Source of the DNA: Escherichia phage PE37
Strand: one strand, 5' to 3'
Sequence record: NC_054929.1
Length of the DNA: 64,000 nt
Positions 1,126 through 62,554 of this stretch are shown here, piece by piece. The position numbers were made by a program, and so were the translations under genes. Every line of letters starts with the position of its first letter. The first letter of the stretch is position 1. The notes under the pieces are model-generated. The model saw only the letters and a program-made list of their open reading frames with translations. It had not been told where the DNA came from and made no database searches.

Positions 1126-1164
1126 GTTTACTTTACGGTAGAGTTGTGATATTATAGCTCTACC
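1126..1164 (+). promoter_or_regulatory. early promoter with stem-loop (PeSL-like): GTTTAC-N18-TGaTATTAT, -10 inside 7-bp inverted repeat
   Basis: -35 at 1126-1131, -10 at 1150-1155; IR GGTAGAG (1137-1143) / CTCTACC (1158-1164). Confidence 0.65.
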
Positions 1165-1184
1165 AAACAAATGAGGAAAACAAA

Positions 1185-1424
1185 ATGCTGCTAAGTGAAA
1201 AACCGATTACTGTTAAAGAATTCCAAGAAAAAGTTAAGCTATTTGCACAGGAATTGGTAAATAAGGTTTCTGAACGATTTCCTGAAACATCGGTTCGTGT
1301 TATTACTGAAACTCCTCGTTCAGTATTAGTAATTGTGAATCCAGGTGATGGCGATCAAATATCGCATCTTAAATTAGATTTTGATGGATTAGTTGAAGCA
1401 CAAAGGGTGTATGGCGTACTATGA
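1185..1424 (+). CDS. hypothetical protein (79 aa)
   Basis: ATG after early promoter/stem-loop cassette; AGGA RBS. Confidence 0.55.
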   Translation: MLLSEKPITVKEFQEKVKLFAQELVNKVSERFPETSVRVITETPRSVLVIVNPGDGDQISHLKLDFDGLVEAQRVYGVL

Positions 1425-1759
1425 TGAATTTAACTGATATAATTGATAATTGTCTTGAAAATGATACTGGCGATCATAGAGCGCTTGACTCTGAAACAGC
1501 ACAGTTCATTAGAATAACTTTAATGAATGACACTCTAGTAAATAGTATTCATCCTTCTGTATATGATGCTATTATTGTGACGAAGTATCCAGTTGAGCTT
1601 CACAAAAAGATGGTTGGCGCAATTTTTATTGATAAGAAAAACCGCTTTAAAGATGGGCAGAATATAATTAGTTCTGTTATTAAAAGTATAACTAAACTTC
1701 GTCACGAAATTTATCGTGTTGAAACTGCTAAATCTGCTTATCTGGTGATTATGAAATGA
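1421..1759 (+). CDS. hypothetical protein (112 aa)
   Basis: ATGA overlap with upstream ORF. Confidence 0.55.
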   Translation: MMNLTDIIDNCLENDTGDHRALDSETAQFIRITLMNDTLVNSIHPSVYDAIIVTKYPVELHKKMVGAIFIDKKNRFKDGQNIISSVIKSITKLRHEIYRVETAKSAYLVIMK

Positions 1760-2337
1760 AAGCGAGTACAGTACTTCAAATTGCATATTTAGTATCGCAG
1801 GAATCAAAATGTTGCTCCTGGAAGGTAGGAGCAGTAATTGAAAAGAATGGACGTATTATTTCTACCGGATATAATGGTTCACCTGCTGGTGGGGTGAACT
1901 GTTGTGATTATGCTGCTGAGCAAGGTTGGTTGCTGAATAAGCCTAAACATACTATCATCCAAGGTCATAAGCCCGAATGTGTATCATTTGGTTCAACTGA
2001 TCGTTTTGTCTTGGCAAAAGAACACCGGAGCGCTCACTCTGAATGGTCGTCTAAAAATGAAATTCATGCTGAACTAAATGCGATTTTGTTTGCTGCGCGA
2101 AATGGTTCTTCAATTGAAGGTGCTACTATGTATGTAACACTTTCTCCTTGCCCAGATTGTGCAAAAGCGATAGCTCAATCTGGAATTAAAAAGCTGGTTT
2201 ATTGCGAAACATATGATAAAAATAAACCTGGCTGGGATGATATTCTGCGAAATGCAGGTATTGAAGTGTTTAATGTTCCTAAGAAAAACTTGAATAAGTT
2301 AAACTGGGAAAATATCAACGAATTCTGTGGTGAATAA
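1756..2337 (+). CDS. cd: dCMP deaminase
   Basis: 193 aa; zinc-binding HAE and PCxxC motifs (HAELNAI, PCPDCAKAI); ATGA overlap. Confidence 0.9.
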   Translation: MKASTVLQIAYLVSQESKCCSWKVGAVIEKNGRIISTGYNGSPAGGVNCCDYAAEQGWLLNKPKHTIIQGHKPECVSFGSTDRFVLAKEHRSAHSEWSSKNEIHAELNAILFAARNGSSIEGATMYVTLSPCPDCAKAIAQSGIKKLVYCETYDKNKPGWDDILRNAGIEVFNVPKKNLNKLNWENINEFCGE

Positions 2338-2573
2338 TGAAATTTCGTTTGGTACAACTCACAGCAATTAGTTCTTATTCCAACGAGAATATTTCATTTG
2401 CTGTAGAGTATAAGAAGTATTTTTTCTCTAAATGGAAGCAGTATTATAAGTCAAACTGGGTTTGTATTGATAGACCGCATAGTTGGAAATCTGATTTAGA
2501 AAAATGCCAAAAATTGCTTTCCACTCTTAAAGAACGTGGAACAACCCATATTAAAACTGTAATAGGTAAATAA
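2337..2573 (+). CDS. hypothetical protein (78 aa)
   Basis: TAATG overlap with cd stop. Confidence 0.5.
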   Translation: MKFRLVQLTAISSYSNENISFAVEYKKYFFSKWKQYYKSNWVCIDRPHSWKSDLEKCQKLLSTLKERGTTHIKTVIGK

Positions 2574-2882
2574 ATGAAACTGACGACTGAACAAAAAGTA
2601 GCAATTCGTGAAATTTTGAAAACTAAATTGTCCATGGGTATTTCAAACGTGGTTTTTGAAAAGTCTGATGGTACTATTCGTACCATGAAAGGTACTCGTG
2701 ATGCAGACTTTATGCCAACCATGCAAACTGGTAAATTGACTGAATCTGCCCGGAAAGAATCTACTGATATGATTCCAGTATTTGATGTTGAGCTTGGCGA
2801 GTGGCGAGGTTTTTCTATTGACAAATTGATTTCCGTTAATGGTATGAAAGTTGAGCATTTACTCCAATTTATTGGTAAATAA
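2574..2882 (+). CDS. hypothetical protein (102 aa)
   Basis: TAAATG junction with previous ORF. Confidence 0.55.
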   Translation: MKLTTEQKVAIREILKTKLSMGISNVVFEKSDGTIRTMKGTRDADFMPTMQTGKLTESARKESTDMIPVFDVELGEWRGFSIDKLISVNGMKVEHLLQFIGK

Positions 2883-2883
2883 A

Positions 2884-2908
2884 TGCTTTAAGAATTATTT
2901 GTTATTAT
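2884..2908 (+). promoter_or_regulatory. MotA-dependent middle promoter candidate (gene 31)
   Basis: MotA box TGCTTTA at 2884-2890, 12-nt spacer, TATTAT at 2903-2908. Confidence 0.55.
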
Positions 2909-2938
2909 TAATTCATCTGTTAACAAAAAGGAAAAACG

Positions 2939-3274
2939 ATGTCTGAAGTACAACAGCTACCAATTCGTGCTGTCGGTGAATATGTTATTTTAGTTTCTGA
3001 ACCCGCACAAGCCGGTGATGAAGAAGTTACAGAATCAGGACTTATTATCGGTAAACGTGTTCAAGGTGAAGTTCCTGAACTGTGTGTAGTTCACTCTGTC
3101 GGTCCTGATGTTCCTGAAGGTTTCTGCGAAGTTGGTGATTTGACTTCTCTTCCAGTTGGTCAAATTCGAAATGTTCCGCATCCTTTTGTAGCTCTGGGTC
3201 TTAAGCAGCCAAAAGAAATTAAACAAAAATTCGTTACTTGTCACTATAAAGCTATTCCGTGTCTTTATAAGTGA
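2939..3274 (+). CDS. 31: GroES-like co-chaperonin for capsid protein folding
   Basis: 111 aa; position after cd; AGGAAAAA RBS; preceded by MotA-type middle promoter. Confidence 0.85.
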
Positions 3275-3282
3275 TATAAATA
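3275..3282 (+). promoter_or_regulatory. late promoter motif TATAAATA
   Basis: exact 8-mer after gene 31 stop, about 140 nt upstream of rIII. Confidence 0.45.
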
Positions 3283-3421
3283 ATAATATGAATTGGGTGT
3301 CGGAATAATAAGTTAACCGAACAATTCTATGTGGTAGTCTACAACTGAGAGATCTGTCGAAAGAAGATGAAATTCAGAAGAACGTGACTACCGAGTTTTA
3401 ATCTCTAACGAGAATTTTTAA

Positions 3422-3670
3422 ATGATTAAACAATTACAACACGCTCTTGAACTGCAACGAAACGCATGGAATAATGGTCACGAAAACTATGGCGCTTCTA
3501 TTGATGTTGAAGCCGAAGCTCTTGAAATCCTGCGTTATTTCAAACATCTGAATCCTGCTCAAACTGCATTAGCTGCTGAGCTTCAGGAAAAAGATGAACT
3601 TAAGTATGCTAAGCCTCTGGCTTCTGCTGCACGAAAAGCAGTTCGTCACTTTGTGGTAACACTGAAGTAA
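3422..3670 (+). CDS. rIII: lysis-inhibition accessory protein rIII
   Basis: 82 aa; position after gene 31 as in T4. Confidence 0.8.
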   Translation: MIKQLQHALELQRNAWNNGHENYGASIDVEAEALEILRYFKHLNPAQTALAAELQEKDELKYAKPLASAARKAVRHFVVTLK

Positions 3671-3731
3671 TTTATTGGAGATTCACTGCCTTAGTGTGAG
3701 CTAAAATCGAGGAGCCATCGAACTGTCTGAT

Positions 3732-3757
3732 TAATGATTTGCGAATCATTATAGTTT
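3732..3757 (+). terminator. AT-rich hairpin after rIII (weak terminator candidate)
   Basis: 8-bp stem TAATGATT/AATCATTA with TGCG loop, then TAGTTTTAA. Confidence 0.3.
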
Positions 3758-3913
3758 TAAGACCCCGGCAGTTTTATGGTGTACCTCTTGAATGTGAATG
3801 ATGACGGGTTTATGGTTATCCTGTCGTTAAATATCCAAAACCTATGTTCCCCTTGAGGGCTTGCGCAGGCAATGCCAATAAGTCCTGCATTTTCATTTAA
3901 AAGAGAATTTATA

Positions 3914-4090
3914 ATGGCAAAACAAGCTAAAGCAAAGAAAGCAGTTGAAAAGAAAGTTGGTGATTCTAAACGCGCTGGCTACAAGCGTGGGTCGAACTCT
4001 CGTATCAATCAAACTGTTGAGAAGATCATGCGCCGAGCACGTGCGGTTCTTCGAGATGATGCTTCTCGTTTTGGTAAGCAGAAAGCATAA
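3914..4090 (+). CDS. hypothetical small basic protein (58 aa)
   Basis: ATG at 3914 has better SD spacing than the upstream ATG at 3872; Lys/Arg-rich; followed by terminator. Confidence 0.45.
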   Translation: MAKQAKAKKAVEKKVGDSKRAGYKRGSNSRINQTVEKIMRRARAVLRDDASRFGKQKA

Positions 4091-4094
4091 GTTA

Positions 4095-4124
4095 AGGACT
4101 CCTTCGGGAGTCCTTTTTTATTTT
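4095..4124 (+). terminator. intrinsic terminator
   Basis: AGGACTCC-TTCG-GGAGTCCT hairpin followed by TTTTTTATTTT. Confidence 0.75.
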
Positions 4125-4143
4125 CCAAAGATTGCATAAAGTT

Positions 4144-4186
4144 GTTTACAGTATGGTTCCTTTGTGATAGTATTATCTTACACAAA
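4144..4186 (+). promoter_or_regulatory. early promoter with stem-loop (PeSL-like)
   Basis: GTTTAC at 4144-4149, -10 TAGTAT at 4168-4173; IR TTTGTG (4161-4166) / CACAAA (4181-4186). Confidence 0.6.
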
Positions 4187-4200
4187 CAAAGGAGAATAAA

Positions 4201-4533
4201 ATGAAAACGATTAATCTGAACGCTGCAGTTAAGACTAAATGCTTCAATGGTAAATATGATGAAACTATGTGGTTCTTAATGGCAGTTGAAGGTGATATTA
4301 TTGAAGTAGAAACAACAGAAGGTATGGGAACAGATTTCACCTTTACAATTCAAGTTCATAATTTCTTTACTGGTTGGATTTATGAATTGAATACAGTAAT
4401 CGTTGGAAAAATTGAACAAAATGAATTAGGCGAATGGTATTATGTTACAGCTCGCCAACGTGCCGAACGTTTGATTGAGAAGATGAAAAAAGTTGGTAAA
4501 CTTGACATGAAGCACTGGAAAGTAGTAAAATAA
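4201..4533 (+). CDS. hypothetical protein (110 aa)
   Basis: follows early promoter cassette and GGAGAATAAA-ATG RBS. Confidence 0.55.
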   Translation: MKTINLNAAVKTKCFNGKYDETMWFLMAVEGDIIEVETTEGMGTDFTFTIQVHNFFTGWIYELNTVIVGKIEQNELGEWYYVTARQRAERLIEKMKKVGKLDMKHWKVVK

Positions 4534-4535
4534 TT

Positions 4536-4575
4536 GTTTACTTTGGTACAGGATATGATATTATATACCTGTACC
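4536..4575 (+). promoter_or_regulatory. early promoter with stem-loop (PeSL-like)
   Basis: GTTTAC at 4536-4541, TGaTATTAT -10 at 4559-4564; IR GGTACAGG (4545-4552) / CCTGTACC (4568-4575). Confidence 0.65.
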
Positions 4576-4601
4576 GCAATTAAACATCTCGGAGAATAAA
4601 A

Positions 4602-4967
4602 ATGAACTACATCAACTTTGAACGTAAATATGTTTCTAATGGTATTGCAGGTTCTATTGATACTATTTGCCTTTGGAAACATCAAAATGGATCAGTATGC
4701 GAAATTGAACAGTATATGACTCCTAACTACGTTTATATGCGATTTGAAAATGGCATCACGGTTTCAATCACAATGGAAGGTTCAAACTTCAAAATCGCTC
4801 TGGATGATGATTTTCGTCAACGCGATTTAGGGACCCATCCTTGCTGGAATGGCGCTAATCGTAAGCTTCTGGTTAAAACTTGGATTCGTCATATTTTGAG
4901 TAACAGAGCTAAACCTGAGCATCTTGAAGCAATCTTTGATGTAGTTCTCAACGAATTTGATATTTAA
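4602..4967 (+). CDS. hypothetical protein (121 aa)
   Basis: follows early promoter cassette and GGAGAATAAAA-ATG RBS. Confidence 0.55.
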   Translation: MNYINFERKYVSNGIAGSIDTICLWKHQNGSVCEIEQYMTPNYVYMRFENGITVSITMEGSNFKIALDDDFRQRDLGTHPCWNGANRKLLVKTWIRHILSNRAKPEHLEAIFDVVLNEFDI

Positions 4968-6986: not shown

Positions 6987-7255
6987 TGTTTGTCGTTCAC
7001 ACTATTTATGAAAATGAAGGTAATACTACACGTGATTACGGTCACGTAAATCAATTTTTTAGATGCAATCCAGAATTTCGAGCTCAAAAAGACGAACGAA
7101 TTTTTAAAAAATGTGTAGAGCAAGGTTTCATTTACGTCAAGCACTGGATGCAAGGAAATAAAGTTAGAACAACGTACCACAGGTCTTTGACTGAGCTTAA
7201 TGATGAATTGATTTATAATAGAGCTGTAAACCAAACTCTAAAGGATGAACAATGA
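6986..7255 (+). CDS. hypothetical protein (89 aa)
   Basis: TAATG overlap. Confidence 0.5.
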   Translation: MFVVHTIYENEGNTTRDYGHVNQFFRCNPEFRAQKDERIFKKCVEQGFIYVKHWMQGNKVRTTYHRSLTELNDELIYNRAVNQTLKDEQ

Positions 7256-8718
7256 TTCTTAAAATTCTGAACGAAATAGCATCTATTGGTTCAACTAAGC
7301 AGAAGCAAGCAATTCTTGAAAAGAACAAAGATAATGAATTGCTTAAACGAGTATATCGTCTGACTTATTCTCGTGGGTTACAGTATTATATCAAGAAATG
7401 GCCTAAACCTGGTATTGCTACCCAGAGTTTTGGAATGCTGACCATTACCGATATGCTTGACTTCATTGAATTCACGTTAGCTACTCGGAAATTAACTGGC
7501 AATGCAGCAATTGAGGAATTAACTGGATATATCACCGATGGTAAAAAGGATGATGTTGAAGTTTTGCGTCGAGTTATGATGCGAGACCTTGAATGCGGTG
7601 CTTCAGTATCTATTGCAAACAAAGTTTGGCCAGGTTTAATTCCTGAACAACCTCAAATGCTGGCAAGTTCTTATGATGAAAAGGGCATTAGTAAGAATAT
7701 CAAATTTCCAGCCTTTGCACAGTTAAAAGCAGATGGAGCCCGGTGTTTTGCTGAAGTCCGAGGTGATGAATTAGATGATGTTCGTCTTTTATCACGAGCT
7801 GGTAATGAATATCTAGGATTAAACCTTCTCAAAGAAGAGTTAATCAAAATGACCGCTGAAGCTCGCCAGATTCATCCAGAAGGTGTGTTAATTGATGGCG
7901 AATTGGTAGTATACCATGAGCAAGTTGAAAAGGAGCCAGAAGGTCTAGATTTTCTTTTTGATGCTTATCCTGAAATTAGTAAAGCTAAAGAATTCGCTGA
8001 AGTAGCTGAATCACGTACTACTTCTAATGGAATAGCTAATAAATCTTTAAAGGGAACCATTTCTGAAAAAGAAGCACAATGCATGAAGTTTCAGGTCTGG
8101 GATTATGTTCCATTAGTAGAAATATACGGTCTTCCAGCATTTCGTTTGAAATATGATGTACGTTTTTCTAAACTAGAACAAATGACATCGGGATATGATA
8201 AAGTAATTTTAATTGAAAACCAGGTAGTAAATAACCTAGATGAAGCTAAGGTAATTTACAAAAAGTATATTGACCAAGGTCTTGAAGGTATTATTCTCAA
8301 AAATATCGATGGATTATGGGAAAATGCTCGTTCAAAAAATCTTTATAAATTTAAAGAAGTAATTGATGTTGATTTAAAAATTGTAGGAATTTATCCTCAC
8401 CGTAAAGACCCTACTAAAGCGGGTGGATTTATTCTTGAGTCAGAGTGTGGAAAAATTAAAGTAAATGCTGGTTCAGGCTTAAAAGATAAAGCCGGTGTAA
8501 AATCGCATGAACTTGACCGTACTCGCATTATGGAAAACCAAAATTATTATATTGGAAAAATTCTAGAGTGCGAATGCAACGGTTGGTTAAAATCTGATGG
8601 CCGCACTGATTACGTTAAATTATTTCTTCCAATTGCGATTCGTTTACGTGAAGATAAAACTAAAGCTAATACGTTCGAAGATGTATTTGGCGATTTTCAT
8701 GAGGTAACTGGTTTATGA
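7252..8718 (+). CDS. 30: ATP-dependent DNA ligase
   Basis: 488 aa; KADGAR adenylation motif; sequence matches my recollection of T4 DNA ligase. Confidence 0.95.
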   Translation: MILKILNEIASIGSTKQKQAILEKNKDNELLKRVYRLTYSRGLQYYIKKWPKPGIATQSFGMLTITDMLDFIEFTLATRKLTGNAAIEELTGYITDGKKDDVEVLRRVMMRDLECGASVSIANKVWPGLIPEQPQMLASSYDEKGISKNIKFPAFAQLKADGARCFAEVRGDELDDVRLLSRAGNEYLGLNLLKEELIKMTAEARQIHPEGVLIDGELVVYHEQVEKEPEGLDFLFDAYPEISKAKEFAEVAESRTTSNGIANKSLKGTISEKEAQCMKFQVWDYVPLVEIYGLPAFRLKYDVRFSKLEQMTSGYDKVILIENQVVNNLDEAKVIYKKYIDQGLEGIILKNIDGLWENARSKNLYKFKEVIDVDLKIVGIYPHRKDPTKAGGFILESECGKIKVNAGSGLKDKAGVKSHELDRTRIMENQNYYIGKILECECNGWLKSDGRTDYVKLFLPIAIRLREDKTKANTFEDVFGDFHEVTGL

Positions 8719-11052: not shown

Positions 11053-13110
11053 ATGGAACTTATTACAGAATTATTTGACGGCGCTTCGGCGCCGGTTGTT
11101 AACTTAAATCCTAAGCATAAAATACCACAAATTTTTGCTATTCAAGCCGGCGAAGAAAGCGTGCTTCCTGGATTTAGATTTTGTACATACACCTCTGGTG
11201 GTGATACGAATAAAAACGTTAAGCCAGGCGATAAAATGATGCATATCGTAATGATAGGTGTTAATGAGAAATTATCGTTAGTTAAGCTTAAAAACTTGGG
11301 TGGAAATCCAATTGGTGTCATTAATGCGGTTTTTGATACTGCTCTTCAAACAATGAAACAGTATAAAATTGATGCATGTTTATTCCGCGTACTAAAAAGT
11401 AAAACAAATGGCGCAGCTCGTCAAATGCAAGTTATTGCTGACCGTTTAGTACGTACTAAAGGAGCAGGTCGATATGTTCTTTTAAAGGAAATCTGGGATT
11501 ATGATAAAAAGTATGCATATATTATGGTTTACCGTAAAAATGCCAATTTAGAAGACATTCCAGGTGTACCTCCTATTTCAACTGAGTTATTCACAAAAGT
11601 TGAATCAAAGGTTGGTGATGTTTATGTAGACGTTAAAACAGGTAATGCTGTTCCTAAAGCTGTTGCTGTTGCCGCTTCTATTGCTTTAGAAAATGATAAG
11701 CGCACGGATCAAGCTGTTATTCAGAAAACTAAAATTAGTCGTCGATTAGCAGCACAAGCTCAATATTCTACTGTCGATGCTTCACTTCAGGGTGATAGCT
11801 TCGCCGCTAAGAAATATCAAGAGTTTGAATCTAAAGTTCCGGTATATAAAGCAGAAGGACCAATGAACTCTGGCGTTATTCAGATTGGTTCAAACTTCAG
11901 CAAAGGAGCTATCGGTGGTATGAGAAGTGCTTCTCGTTTTAAATCTAATGATTATGAACTAGAAAGTTTCCGAAATCATATTGCATTAGCCCATGCACGT
12001 TTACGCGATCCATCTATCAAGCTGCAGAGCGATACATCATATCAAGGTTCCCAGGAATATTTAAAGAATAAAGACTTCTTTAATTACAAAACTGATAAAA
12101 TTTTAAGCGATCTTGCTGATATTAATATTTCTAATAGTTTTGATGTTATTAAGAAAATTATCAATGATTTAGTTAAAGGTTCTAAAGCTACACCAGATGA
12201 AAAGACAGCTATTATTCAATTTGTAATGAATGGAATTTATAAATTAATTGATGAATCCGCTGCTCAGGCGTATGAATATGCAAGCACTGAAGTAACTCCA
12301 AAAGGATTAACTCAGGCTGAGTCCGATGTAATTGAAGATTATTGTGCAGATTCATATGTTGAAATGAACTCGTTCCTCTTGGGTAAACCAGATTCTACCC
12401 GTGAAGAATACATGGAACGAGCTATTAAACACATCGAGACAATGGATTCTGCCTTTGCCAAAGGATCAGTTCTTCCTCCAGGAACTACGCTTTATCGTGG
12501 ACAAGAAGTTACCTTTAAAACTTTACGTCATAATATTGAAAATAAAATGTTCTACTTCAAGAACTTCGTATCCACATCGCTTAAACCAAATATCTTCGGT
12601 GAGCATGGTAAAAACTATATGGCTCTAGATGATTCCGGTGCAGTATTTTCTGGTGAAGGAGAAGGTTCCGTTGATGCTGAAGATTTAATGCATATGGGTA
12701 GTCATTCTGCTTATGCGAATGAAGATGCTGAAACTAGCGTGGGTATGGTAATAAAAGGAGCTGAGCGAATTAAAGTTATCGTTCCAGGTCATTTATCAGG
12801 ATTTCCATCAGAAGCTGAAGTTATTCTACCGCGTGGAATTTTGCTGAAGATTAATAAAGTGAGTACTTACTTTATGAAAGAAACTGCTTATAACAAGTAT
12901 CTAATCGAAGGTACAATCGTTCCTCCTTCTGAACAATTAGAAGAATCAGTATATGATGGCGACCATCTAATGGAAACTGGTGAAGTTCGTCCAATGGCTG
13001 GATTTAATCAATTCCTTGTAGAAGAATCAAAAGAAGAGGAAAACGAAGTTTCTCAAATCTTAGCTTCTTTGGTTAACATCAACGGAATGTCTAAAAAGTT
13101 CAAGATGTAG
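11053..13110 (+). CDS. Alt-like ADP-ribosyltransferase paralog
   Basis: 685 aa; same MELITELFD N-terminus, conserved YRGQ/STS/EAEVILPRG motifs, divergent middle. Confidence 0.85.
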   Translation: MELITELFDGASAPVVNLNPKHKIPQIFAIQAGEESVLPGFRFCTYTSGGDTNKNVKPGDKMMHIVMIGVNEKLSLVKLKNLGGNPIGVINAVFDTALQTMKQYKIDACLFRVLKSKTNGAARQMQVIADRLVRTKGAGRYVLLKEIWDYDKKYAYIMVYRKNANLEDIPGVPPISTELFTKVESKVGDVYVDVKTGNAVPKAVAVAASIALENDKRTDQAVIQKTKISRRLAAQAQYSTVDASLQGDSFAAKKYQEFESKVPVYKAEGPMNSGVIQIGSNFSKGAIGGMRSASRFKSNDYELESFRNHIALAHARLRDPSIKLQSDTSYQGSQEYLKNKDFFNYKTDKILSDLADINISNSFDVIKKIINDLVKGSKATPDEKTAIIQFVMNGIYKLIDESAAQAYEYASTEVTPKGLTQAESDVIEDYCADSYVEMNSFLLGKPDSTREEYMERAIKHIETMDSAFAKGSVLPPGTTLYRGQEVTFKTLRHNIENKMFYFKNFVSTSLKPNIFGEHGKNYMALDDSGAVFSGEGEGSVDAEDLMHMGSHSAYANEDAETSVGMVIKGAERIKVIVPGHLSGFPSEAEVILPRGILLKINKVSTYFMKETAYNKYLIEGTIVPPSEQLEESVYDGDHLMETGEVRPMAGFNQFLVEESKEEENEVSQILASLVNINGMSKKFKM

Positions 13111-13162
13111 TTTACAAGGCCCTCATGTTGTGTTATAGTAGTCTTACTGACACAACATGAGG
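13110..13162 (+). promoter_or_regulatory. early promoter with stem-loop (PeSL-like), 12-bp perfect inverted repeat
   Basis: GTTTAC at 13110-13115, TGtTATAGT -10 at 13134-13139; IR CCTCATGTTGTG (13121-13132) / CACAACATGAGG (13151-13162). Confidence 0.65.
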
Positions 13163-60350: not shown

Positions 60351-60389
60351 GTTTACATACTGATGAGGTAGTGATACTATTACCTCATC
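60351..60389 (+). promoter_or_regulatory. early promoter with stem-loop (PeSL-like)
   Basis: GTTTAC at 60351-60356, TGaTACTAT -10 at 60375-60380; IR GATGAGGTA (60362-60370) / TACCTCATC (60381-60389). Confidence 0.65.
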
Positions 60390-60410
60390 AAAATTAATTA
60401 GGAAAATAAA

Positions 60411-60713: not shown

Positions 60714-60751
60714 GTTTACATAGGGTTTTAGTTGTGATACTATTACCCTAT
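60714..60751 (+). promoter_or_regulatory. early promoter with stem-loop (PeSL-like)
   Basis: GTTTAC at 60714-60719, TGaTACTAT -10 at 60738-60743; IR ATAGGGT (60720-60726) / ACCCTAT (60745-60751). Confidence 0.65.
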
Positions 60752-60771
60752 CAACTACTGAGGAGAATAAA

Positions 60772-61726: not shown

Positions 61727-61799
61727 TGGGAATTAGCCAAGTTGGTAAGGCACTGGATTTTGATTCCAGGATGCAAAGGTTCGAGTCCTTTATTCCCAG
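61727..61799 (+). tRNA. tRNA-Gln (anticodon UUG)
   Basis: cloverleaf by eye: acceptor TGGGAAT/ATTCCCA, anticodon stem CTGGA/TCCAG, loop TTTTGAT, T-loop TTCGAGT. Confidence 0.85.
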
Positions 61800-61800
61800 C

Positions 61801-61887
61801 GCGAGAATGGTCAAATTGGTAAAGGCACAGCACTTAAAATGCTGCGGAATGATTTCCTTGTGGGTTCGAGTCCCACTTCTCGCACCA
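61801..61887 (+). tRNA. tRNA-Leu (anticodon UAA), type II with long variable arm
   Basis: acceptor GCGAGAA/TTCTCGC, anticodon loop CTTAAAA, T-loop TTCGAGT, encoded CCA. Confidence 0.85.
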
Positions 61888-61892
61888 AATTT

Positions 61893-61966
<74 letters not shown>

Positions 61967-61976
61967 ATTTAATTTA

Positions 61977-62050
61977 CTCCGTGTAGCTCAGTTTGGTAGA
62001 GCGCCTGATTTGGGATCAGGAGGTCCAAGGTTCAAATCCTTGTATGGAGA
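61977..62050 (+). tRNA. tRNA-Pro (anticodon UGG)
   Basis: anticodon stem CCTGA/TCAGG, loop TTTGGGA, T-loop TTCAAAT; acceptor has G-U pairs; no encoded CCA. Confidence 0.8.
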
Positions 62051-62052
62051 CT

Positions 62053-62142
62053 GGAGGCGTGGCAGAGTGGTTTAATGCACCGGTCTTGAAAACCGGCAGT
62101 CGCTCCGGCGACTCATAGGTTCAAATCCTATCGCCTCCGCCA
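62053..62142 (+). tRNA. tRNA-Ser (anticodon UGA), type II
   Basis: acceptor GGAGGCG/CGCCTCC, anticodon stem CCGGT/ACCGG, loop CTTGAAA, long variable arm, encoded CCA. Confidence 0.85.
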
Positions 62143-62147
62143 GTTTT

Positions 62148-62223
62148 GCTGATTTAGCTCAGTAGGTAGAGCAACTCACTTGTAATGAGAAGGTCGGCGG
62201 TTCGATTCCGTCAATCAGCACCA
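62148..62223 (+). tRNA. tRNA-Thr (anticodon UGU)
   Basis: acceptor GCTGATT/AATCAGC, anticodon loop CTTGTAA, T-loop TTCGATT, encoded CCA. Confidence 0.85.
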
Positions 62224-62224
62224 A

Positions 62225-62299
62225 GGCCCTGTAGCTGGAAGGTTCAAGCAAGCGACTCATAATCGCCAGATGGTGGTTCAATTCCACCCAGGGCCACCA
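62225..62299 (+). tRNA. tRNA with CAU anticodon (Met or lysidine-type Ile)
   Basis: acceptor GGCCCTG/CAGGGCC, anticodon loop CTCATAA, T-loop TTCAATT, encoded CCA. Confidence 0.8.
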
Positions 62300-62308
62300 A
62301 ATTAATTT

Positions 62309-62395
62309 GGGGAGTTATCCCGTAGAGGTAGCGGTGTGGACTGTAAATCCATTGTCATTGCGACTCGGGTGGTTCGACTCCATCACTCCCCACCA
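62309..62395 (+). tRNA. tRNA-Tyr (anticodon GUA), type II
   Basis: acceptor GGGGAGT/ACTCCCC, anticodon loop CTGTAAA, variable-arm hairpin, T-loop TTCGACT, encoded CCA; D-arm atypical. Confidence 0.75.
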
Positions 62396-62399
62396 ATTT

Positions 62400-62474
62400 G
62401 GATGTGTAGCTCAATGGCAGAGCGATCGCCTGTTAAGCGATTGGTTATAGGTTCGAATCCTATCACGTCCGCCA
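62400..62474 (+). tRNA. tRNA-Asn (anticodon GUU)
   Basis: acceptor GGATGTG/CACGTCC, D-stem GCTC/GAGC, anticodon stem ATCGC/GCGAT, loop CTGTTAA, T-loop TTCGAAT, encoded CCA. Confidence 0.88.
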
Positions 62475-62478
62475 AATC

Positions 62479-62554
62479 CGAGGCATAGCTCAGAAGGAAG
62501 AGCAAGGACCTTCTAAGTCCTAGGTCGTAGGTTCGATCCCTACTGCCTCGACCA
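62479..62554 (+). tRNA. tRNA-Arg (anticodon UCU)
   Basis: acceptor CGAGGCA/TGCCTCG, D-stem GCTC/GAGC, anticodon stem AGGAC/GTCCT, loop CTTCTAA, T-loop TTCGATC, encoded CCA. Confidence 0.88.

Follow-up and report, generated by a model that had tools for sequence, protein, structure and literature searches.

The stretch of DNA analyzed here, 64,000 nucleotides (nt) of Escherichia phage PE37 (NC_054929.1; hereafter the window), shares 97-98% identity with numerous Tequatrovirus genomes, EC121 and PST among them, and represents the T4 region pseT-cd-31-rIII-30 of a Tequatrovirus, its + strand being the T4 early strand. Along this strand lie pseT (1-455), cd.5 to cd.3, cd.2 (start at 1185), cd.1, cd (1756-2337), 31.2, 31.1, 31 and rIII, continued by 30.9, 30.8 (start at 4201), 30.7 (start at 4602) and on to the DNA ligase gene gp30 (7252-8718). 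The subject of this analysis is a class of early promoters whose -10 element is enclosed by an inverted repeat. Three of them, in the intergenic regions cd.3/cd.2 (site 1), 30.9/30.8 (site 2) and 30.8/30.7 (site 3), had been singled out in an original prediction that likened them to the promoter early stem-loops (PeSLs) of T4-type phages.

Site 1, known in T4 as Pe133295, is found upstream of cd.2 at 1126-1155 (+), with the -35 element GTTTAC at 1126-1131, a TG at 1147-1148 and the -10 hexamer TATTAT at 1150-1155. Its hairpin (1137-1164, +) is built from the outer arms GGTAGAG (1137-1143) and CTCTACC (1158-1164), which leave a loop of 14 nt; in RNA the stem lengthens to 12 base pairs (bp; 1137-1148/1153-1164) closed by an AUAU loop. 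The hairpin begins 14 nt after the stop codon of cd.3 (1121-1123) and is followed by the Shine-Dalgarno sequence (SD) GAGG at 1173-1176 and the ATG at 1185; 404 of 418 phage records match it with an identity of 99% or higher. Site 3, upstream of 30.7, has the same layout at 4536-4564 (+): GTTTAC at 4536-4541, TG at 4556-4557 and TATTAT at 4559-4564. The outer arms of its hairpin (4545-4575, +), GGTACAGG at 4545-4552 and CCTGTACC at 4568-4575, enclose a loop of 15 nt and extend in RNA to a stem of about 16 pairs (-20.1 kcal/mol; z relative to shuffled sequences -4.45). This hairpin begins 12 nt beyond the stop codon of 30.8 (4531-4533) and leaves the SD GGAG (4591-4594) ahead of the ATG at 4602 unpaired. 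At both sites the stop codon is located 2 nt 5' of the -35 element, and the 12 nt that precede this element are A/T-rich. Within the 3' end of 30.8 we also noticed a near-consensus sigma-70 promoter, TTGACA-18-TAAAAT (11/12; 4502-4531), placed 5 nt 5' of the site 3 GTTTAC; RNA from approximately position 4538 would hold the whole site 3 hairpin at its 5' terminus.

Site 2 is organized differently. Gene 30.9 is followed by a canonical intrinsic terminator with a GC-rich stem and a T-run (4094-4123, +), just 5' of the early promoter of 30.8 at 4144-4173 (+; GTTTAC 4144-4149, TG 4165-4166, -10 TAGTAT 4168-4173, ATG 4201). The inverted repeat reported earlier, TTTGTG/CACAAA (4161-4166/4181-4186, +; loop 14 nt), is present. 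The best stem, however, spans 4157-4194 (+) and pairs UUCCUUUGU (4157-4165) with ACAAAGGAG (4186-4194) through eight Watson-Crick pairs and one G.U pair. It excludes the 6-bp register and buries the SD GGAG at 4191-4194.

The three inverted repeats thus bracket the -10 exactly as had been claimed, with arms of 7, 6 and 8 bp, and every loop contains the TGn together with the -10 hexamer. The shared promoter formula GTTTAC-N17/18-TGnTAYTAT needs amendment. GTTTAC is found at 1126, 4144 and 4536, but site 2 reads TGaTAGTAT rather than TAYTAT, and N17/18 is correct as the spacing between the two hexamers (18, 18 and 17 nt), not as the gap between GTTTAC and TG. Of the near-identical ribosome binding site and start, GGAGAATAAA is indeed shared by sites 2 and 3, but ATG-AAA occurs at site 2 alone, with ATG-AAC at site 3.

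Taken one by one, the repeats are only modestly unlikely to arise by chance (P = 0.017, 0.09 and 0.006 in flank shuffles of sites 1, 2 and 3). As a class they are strongly enriched. Six of the seven complete strict early promoters on the + strand of the window possess an enclosing repeat of at least 6 bp, compared with 4.7% of all positions. In T4 such repeats were found at 11 of 35 strict sites (background 7.4%), and seven sites reached at least 8 bp (background 0.9%). The wider analysis used an early-region set of 109 T4-like sequences in total (2.07 Mb), with 105 early-region loci taken from IMG/VR around gp30, Tk, gp52 and Dda (protein identity 47-100%). The strict early promoter pattern, GTTTAC-N17/18-TGn-TAnnnT, gave 408 unique promoters in 223 sequence families. 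As a control, left and right halves of different promoters were joined such that the promoter consensus was preserved (non-cognate halves). When each of the 223 families was represented by a single promoter, a perfect repeat of 7 bp or more around the -10 was present in 17.9% of promoters versus 2.2% of non-cognate combinations (p = 2.6e-24), and one of at least 8 bp in 12.6% versus 0.5% (p = 3.5e-30). The centres of repeats of at least 7 bp gather within a few nt of the -10, the left arms occupy the promoter spacer and the right arms start 1-5 nt 3' of the hexamer; a separate minor cluster of centres is located upstream of the -35. Late promoters on the same strand (TATAAATA sites) had enclosing helices at the non-cognate level (1 of 57 families), and the middle promoters, of which 2 of 24 families carried a helix (8.3% versus 1.7% for non-cognate halves), are too few to judge. 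About a quarter of strong early promoters carry their -10 within a selected hairpin, and the pattern is clade-wide.

Which RNA can form the hairpin depends on where transcription begins. The T4 GenBank name Pe133295 places the +1 of site 1 at the seventh nt after the hexamer, which is the fifth nt of the right arm (A1162 in the window). When the same rule was applied to the other promoters, the predicted +1 was A4180 at site 2 and G4571 at site 3, and it fell into the right arm (43) or the loop (20) in 63 of 63 helix-bearing families. The mRNA made from the promoter itself would consequently lack the left arm, so the hairpin is possible only in RNA that enters from upstream. The predicted folds differ accordingly. 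The promoters' own mRNAs are essentially unstructured (0 to -0.8 kcal/mol; -0.8 at site 1 and 0 at site 2), whereas RNA from upstream folds at -17 to -28 kcal/mol with z values of -3.1 to -4.5 (the weakest member, in the ipI region, has z -1.5). At sites 1 and 2 the read-through segments both reach -18.9 kcal/mol (z -3.1 and -3.5, respectively). The 12-16-bp RNA stems with tetraloops arise when the outer arms are lengthened by G.U and A-U pairs, the UGUG of the extended -10 pairing with the 3' half of the hexamer. When DNA parameters were used, the outer arms alone paired (-5 to -8 kcal/mol) and left loops of 12-14 nt.

The notion of the original prediction that the left arm is located upstream of the start site therefore agrees with the Pe133295 annotation and with the predicted starts of all families. 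It had rated a role in DNA or in read-through transcripts as more likely than a 5'-untranslated-region hairpin. Proximity to the SD and the start codon would be expected of a hairpin in the 5' untranslated region of the promoter's own mRNA, acting as a stabilizer or translational element of the proximal transcript. The predicted start within the loop or right arm throughout the families, the T4 promoter name at site 1 and the negligible folding energy of the own transcripts leave this explanation with next to no probability. Of the two remaining roles, the evidence presented below favours read-through RNA, if not decisively.

We examined whether the pairing itself is selected, as had been proposed on the grounds that the arms differ in sequence and yet remain complementary. 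Read-through segments folded at a mean of -14.95 kcal/mol, compared with -10.30 kcal/mol when the spacer was shuffled (p ~1e-24) and -10.85 kcal/mol when the upstream half was non-cognate (p ~1e-19); the shuffle z was below -2 in 45% of families. The site 3 arms are kept in 14 loci (30.7) despite a diverged loop and leader, the single arm change being a C to U that gives a G.U pair. More generally, variable columns make up 14% of arms, 18% of loop and 21% of flank. A relative of the site 1 cassette has the same flanks and a different stem, AGGGTTA/TAACCCT. The clearest case is a cassette of the denV type, GTTTAC-a-TCTCC-nn-TAG...TACTAT...CTA-nn-GGAGA, which is found ahead of at least five different genes and whose two central pairs take the forms TG/CA, AT/AT, AG/CT and TC/GA. 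In an alignment of 19 such sequences, pair 17/49 is AU in 10 and UA in 9, pair 18/48 is GC in 12, UA in 6 and CG in 1, and no sequence is unpaired. The covariation score of 0.194 compares with 0.062 in shuffles, none of 500 of which reached it, and with at most 0.046 in slid registers. Selection on pairing between spacer and leader is thus supported, both by cognate complementarity far in excess of non-cognate and by compensatory changes. Covariation in a wider alignment is borne out for the denV-type cassette but not for the reported sites themselves: what had been taken as covariation there spans different promoters, and the orthologues are nearly invariant. As close relatives of the small proteins are few (14 and 5 loci), the reported sites could be judged by conservation only.

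T4 is the classic system of quasi-palindrome templated mutations. One could therefore imagine that the repeats have no function of their own and are by-products of such mutations, or of a partly palindromic promoter consensus, carried along by mobile cassettes. Indeed, the extended -10 TGTG-R-TAYWAT is partly self-complementary in RNA, and most early promoters function without a helix. We regard this as improbable. Non-cognate halves that keep the consensus reach only the 2.2% given above, the arms are conserved while loop and leader diverge, the compensatory changes leave 19 of 19 sequences paired, and such an origin would leave the relation to terminators described next unexpected.

Hairpin promoters have a median gap of only 2 nt between stop codon and -35, and a stem-loop directly 3' of an upstream stop codon is what one would expect of a true terminator or attenuator that stops RNA polymerase arriving from upstream and leaves each small ORF (open reading frame) on its own promoter alone. 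However, a U-tract (five or more T within the next 8 nt) followed 0 of 109 enclosing helices, compared with 40% of the helices upstream of the -35. The tails after the enclosing helices are A-rich (mean of 1.7 T in 8 nt), and the stems have a GC content of about 41%. A scan for the terminator consensus called 4094-4115, the element ahead of site 2, but none of sites 1-3. Owing to the missing U-tracts and the failure of the scan at all three sites, we rejected the idea that the hairpins are canonical terminators.

Hairpins and canonical terminators nevertheless avoid each other. Among unique promoters, a canonical terminator was found upstream of 3 of 80 with a helix and 70 of 328 others (p = 7e-5). 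When one promoter was drawn per family in 200 resamplings, upstream terminators accompanied 1.7% versus 17.6%, a difference that was significant in all 200. Helix and upstream terminator occur together only in the site 2 family, whose helix is of the SD-occluding type. This exclusivity fits a role in read-through RNA: either the helix replaces the terminator, or the terminator leaves no substrate RNA.

Exclusivity would equally be expected of a functional substitute that terminates transcription, and a PeSL stem-loop of phage RB49 was reported to cut expression of a downstream lacZ as strongly as rrnB T1 (PMC2839356). The T-even stems are, however, AT-richer than the GGGG/CCCC stem tested in RB49, they are followed by A-rich tails, and T4 delayed-early expression needs read-through of the early units (PMC2988021). 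Genuine termination or attenuation as the function of the class therefore appears unlikely to us. It overlaps with the boundary role that we propose below; the two diverge only in the origin of the 3' ends, termination in one case, processing and protection in the other. Taken together, the hairpins probably mark transcript boundaries without being classical terminators.

On balance, we lean towards the interpretation that these elements are the T-even version of PeSLs and that the hairpin serves as a boundary element on read-through RNA, standing in for a separate terminator. A stop codon, a very strong sigma-70 early promoter, an SD and an ATG would here be compressed into about 60-75 nt. 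Only the spacer and the first nt after the -10 would be free to vary, and since these are the parts shaped into arms, the -10 comes to lie in the loop. In the majority class, represented by sites 1 and 3, the hairpin, a few nt after the stop codon, would most probably define or protect the 3' end of the upstream message, forming a barrier to exonucleases after RegB or RNase E has cut in the A-rich leader. Alternatively or in addition, it may attenuate read-through. Repeated cassettes of this kind would also supply homology for the modular shuffling that has been proposed for PeSLs.

Several observations weigh against this boundary role. E. coli RNA polymerase would not be expected to terminate at hairpins that lack a U-tract. 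Approximately 70-75% of early promoters have no helix, which means that it is not essential for promoter function. A perfect repeat can pair on either strand and in DNA with equal ease, and the difference between sense and antisense folding energy is no larger than in random windows. Under a filter treating both mismatches alike, G.U exceeds A.C by only 12:7 (p = 0.18). Finally, SD-like tetramers are enriched in spacers as much as anti-SD ones, a finding that speaks against SD occlusion as the general role.

An action at the RNA rather than the DNA level is favoured but not shown. In distinct helices, positions that deviate from Watson-Crick pairing lean to G.U on the sense strand (22:9), whereas a first family-based count of G.U versus A.C (14:12) was contaminated by families that merged non-homologous spacers. 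Inner pairs of the stems exist only with G.U, which again leans to sense-strand RNA. Antisense z values are nearly as low as those of the sense strand (-1.76 versus -2.09, p = 7e-4). Because sense and antisense energies give no signal, the call for RNA rests mainly on the exclusivity with terminators, on right arms that contain the SD and on the loop sizes in DNA.

The low antisense z and the ability of perfect repeats to fold on both strands would suit a DNA-level element, be it a cruciform or hairpin that affects how the -10 opens, a recombination hot spot for cassette exchange and mini-circles, or a switch operating by loop inversion. The occurrence of one cassette, the denV type, ahead of several different genes and the absence of the cd.2 cassette from 4 of 5 loci point in the same direction. 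Arbiol et al. (2010; PMC2839356) located the crossover of an RB49 mini-circle in the loop of one PeSL stem-loop. Neither promoter opening nor recombination would predict that helices are scarce downstream of canonical terminators or that arms are made of the SD. Recombination depends on homology instead of pairing and offers no selection for compensatory changes. Given the differing stem sequences, recognition by a sequence-specific protein is unlikely. Loops of 12-14 nt are unfavourable for cruciform extrusion, and the DNA hairpins at just -5 to -8 kcal/mol are weak by comparison with the RNA folds. A DNA-level function thus strikes us as rather unlikely, if marginally less so than termination.

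An inversion event is in fact on record. In X03007.1, a cloned T4 pseT fragment of 1985, window positions 1144-1157 (T4 133300-133313), which are exactly the 14-nt loop of site 1, are flipped between the 7-bp arms. The T4 misc_feature 133300-133313 ('inverted complement of previously reported sequence') exists because of this inversion. The flip destroys the promoter, and strong early promoters are described as counter-selected in plasmids (PMC2839356). As a natural polymorphism, loop inversion at site 1 was not found: the flipped loop occurs in 1 of 418 records, and this one is a plasmid clone. The record can be cited in favour of a DNA switch, but the inversion is probably a cloning-selected or sequencing artefact.

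In about one fifth of the helix families (14 of 63, including site 2, a further member at 13110 and the denV cassette), the right arm overlaps the SD. The predicted probability that the SD is unpaired was 0.00 in read-through RNA versus 0.99 in own RNA at site 2, 0.23 versus 0.77 at site 1 and 0.89 versus 0.56 at site 3. Overall, SD burial was predicted for 34% of the read-through RNAs, compared with 20% of spacer shuffles and 2.8% of own transcripts. For the majority class (sites 1 and 3) the SD, roughly 8 nt beyond the hairpin, is outside the stem and would be free, though only partly so in the site 1 fold. SD occlusion as a general function was therefore rejected, given that just these 14 families have the SD in the right arm and that swapping the upstream half hardly alters SD accessibility.

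Several of the leaders are also candidate substrates of RegB, whose strong consensus together with S1 is GG*AGRAYARAA and against which RNA is protected by structure (PMC3014915). The leader GGAGAATAAAA(ATG), present at 4191-4201, 4591-4602 and 60761-60771, matches this consensus, so these early mRNAs are likely RegB targets as judged by sequence. In the SD-arm class, the folds suggest that the downstream ORF would be translatable and cleavable by RegB only on RNA from its own early promoter. A comparable arrangement is known from T4, in which the genes e, soc, 49 and I-TevI are under translational control by a hairpin that holds a late promoter (PMC3014915). As in those genes, site 2, the 13110 member and the denV-type cassette have the SD in the 3' arm on long transcripts, and the proximal promoter starts RNA within the hairpin such that the 5' arm is lost and the SD is free. 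Unlike them, the promoters here are of the early sigma-70 type rather than late (TATAAATA, gp55) promoters that delay expression, and the hairpins of sites 1 and 3 do not include the SD. An early promoter in an SD-occluding hairpin is predicted to limit translation to the first minutes.

Further members of the class were found elsewhere in the window. The one at 13110-13162 (+) has GTTTAC at 13110, a -10 TATAGT at 13134-13139 and 13-bp arms (13121-13133/13150-13162), the right one containing an SD GAGG; it folds at -28.1 kcal/mol (z -4.2). Its cassette type (GTTTACaagtccctcgtgttgtgtTATAGT...acataacatgagg) precedes two T4 genes, alt.-3 and alc (T4 123093 and 136336), and where these T4 copies have two G.U pairs the window copy has Watson-Crick pairs. 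In the T4 57B promoter region (60351-60390, +), a -10 TACTAT at 60375-60380 is enclosed by 10-bp arms (60361-60370/60381-60390; z -3.7). In the T4 ipI promoter region (60714-60757, +), a -10 TACTAT at 60738-60743 is flanked by ATAGGGT (60720-60726) and ACCCTAT (60745-60751). Alternative arms exist there at 60729-60734/60752-60757, and with z -1.5 this member is the weakest of the set. A second big family of early promoters, usually without an enclosing helix, has the leader TACTATacaactatcaactactgatacgg...ggagaataaaatg in common (T4 27080, 55384, 70696, 163673, 167086 and others; window 63954). As this leader is sometimes joined to different spacers that do bear a helix, recombinant cassettes are suggested.

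The attribution to PeSLs made in the original prediction was right, and the element class is already published, so that the gain is incremental. The PeSL definition, which comes from RB49 and phi1, combines an AT-rich region with a sigma-70 promoter, a stem-loop and an SD/ATG (Arbiol et al., 2010; PMC2839356). That report distinguishes five subclasses by stem-loop position, one of them 'overlapping the -10', describes a test of the terminator/attenuator role on one GC-rich stem-loop, and proposes the role in cassette exchange. It also names T-even IP-locus elements (Repoila 1994) as analogues on T4 early promoters with weaker, AT-rich stem-loops. In PST, which is about 97% identical to the window, Comeau et al. 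(2014; PMC4122927) catalogued PeSLs whose stem-loops they describe as 'just upstream' of the promoter. Hairpins around early promoters are unmentioned in the T4 reviews PMC3014915 and PMC2988021.

The layout in the window fits the published description of PeSLs (RB49/phi1, PST/T4, nt-1/KVP40) in most respects. A sigma-70-type early promoter with properly spaced -35 and -10 elements is present at 1126, 4144 and 4536; an AT-rich stretch lies before the -35 beside the upstream stop codon; the promoter is combined with a stem-loop of exact repeats (z -3.1 to -4.45 at sites 1-3); and an SD and a small-ORF start form the 3' end (GAGG 1173/ATG 1185, GGAG 4191/ATG 4201, GGAG 4591/ATG 4602). As for PeSLs, many copies are scattered between the small ORFs of hyperplastic regions, where indels and cassette exchange occur, and the stem sequence is variable with G-T pairs tolerated. 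Presence/absence polymorphism is also seen: in 4 of 5 IMG/VR loci, whose Cd.2 proteins are 99-100% identical, the cd.2 cassette is missing and a different coding sequence reaches the cd.2 start.

Differences are equally clear. RB49 PeSLs combine TTGACA/TATAAT with short GGGG...CCCC stems, while GTTTAC/TAYWAT and unrelated stems of about 41% GC are used here, which makes the elements analogues rather than homologues. Contrary to the 2014 description of PST and T4, the dominant geometry has the entire TGn/-10 in the loop, and the complete lack of U-tracts sets the helices apart from the published terminator/attenuator role. From Rho-independent terminators, which they resemble as RNA hairpins at gene ends and in their exclusivity with canonical terminators, they differ by that same lack, by larger outer loops and by their modest GC content. 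Polycistronic bacterial mRNAs contain intercistronic stabilizer hairpins and REP (repetitive extragenic palindromic)-like 3' barriers. The hairpins analyzed here share with these a stable stem-loop without U-tract after a stop codon, followed by an A/U-rich single strand. Those elements are not superimposed on a promoter, however, and stabilization is hypothetical in our case.

Apart from the early promoters, a few features of the window are worth recording. Ten tRNA genes are clustered at 61727-62551 (+), one of them barely over threshold (30.2 bits); the corresponding numbers are 8 in T4 and 9 in PST (PMC4122927, table 1). An Rfam scan found no match in the region of the three sites, and elsewhere only tRNAs. 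The rIII gene is flanked by two unusually long non-coding gaps, 3275-3421 and 3671-3871. A late-promoter motif, TATAAATA, is located near 3286 inside the first. The second, which is 201 nt long and shared with T4, shows no folding beyond that of shuffled sequences (z -1.6).

Few known promoters are as strong as the early ones of T4, which have been compared in alignments for decades. 'Additional regions of consensus' were noted in them and left unexplained (PMC2988021). What our analysis adds to the PeSL concept is that the geometry with the -10 in the loop is dominant at early promoters of T4-type phages, with late promoters only at background level, that pairing is selected, that the helices lack terminator features and yet replace terminators, and that a subclass occludes the SD and RegB site. 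Some of these stems may already have been drawn in figures of the PeSL papers. The concept thereby shifts from 'promoter plus terminator' to a promoter within a read-through-specific RNA structure, and testable predictions arise on the insulation of closely spaced early mini-operons. Strong promoters overlapped by hairpins would also account for artefacts of cloning and sequencing, the inverted loop of the 1985 T4 pseT sequence being an example. For 30.8, alc/alt.-3 and denV, expression could be restricted to RNA of their own promoter. More tentatively, and we would call this a possibility rather than an expectation, the hairpin might be a 'transcript-origin sensor' of T4-type early units that distinguishes read-through from promoter-proximal RNA of one and the same gene. 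If so, translation and RegB cleavage in the SD class (30.8, alt.-3/alc, denV-type) would be confined to the brief firing of the own promoter, and the other class would set processed 3' ends for each mini-operon at no extra sequence cost. Such a sensor would be the early counterpart of the switch in the late genes e, soc and 49, and would add a post-transcriptional layer to the distinction between immediate-early and delayed-early expression.

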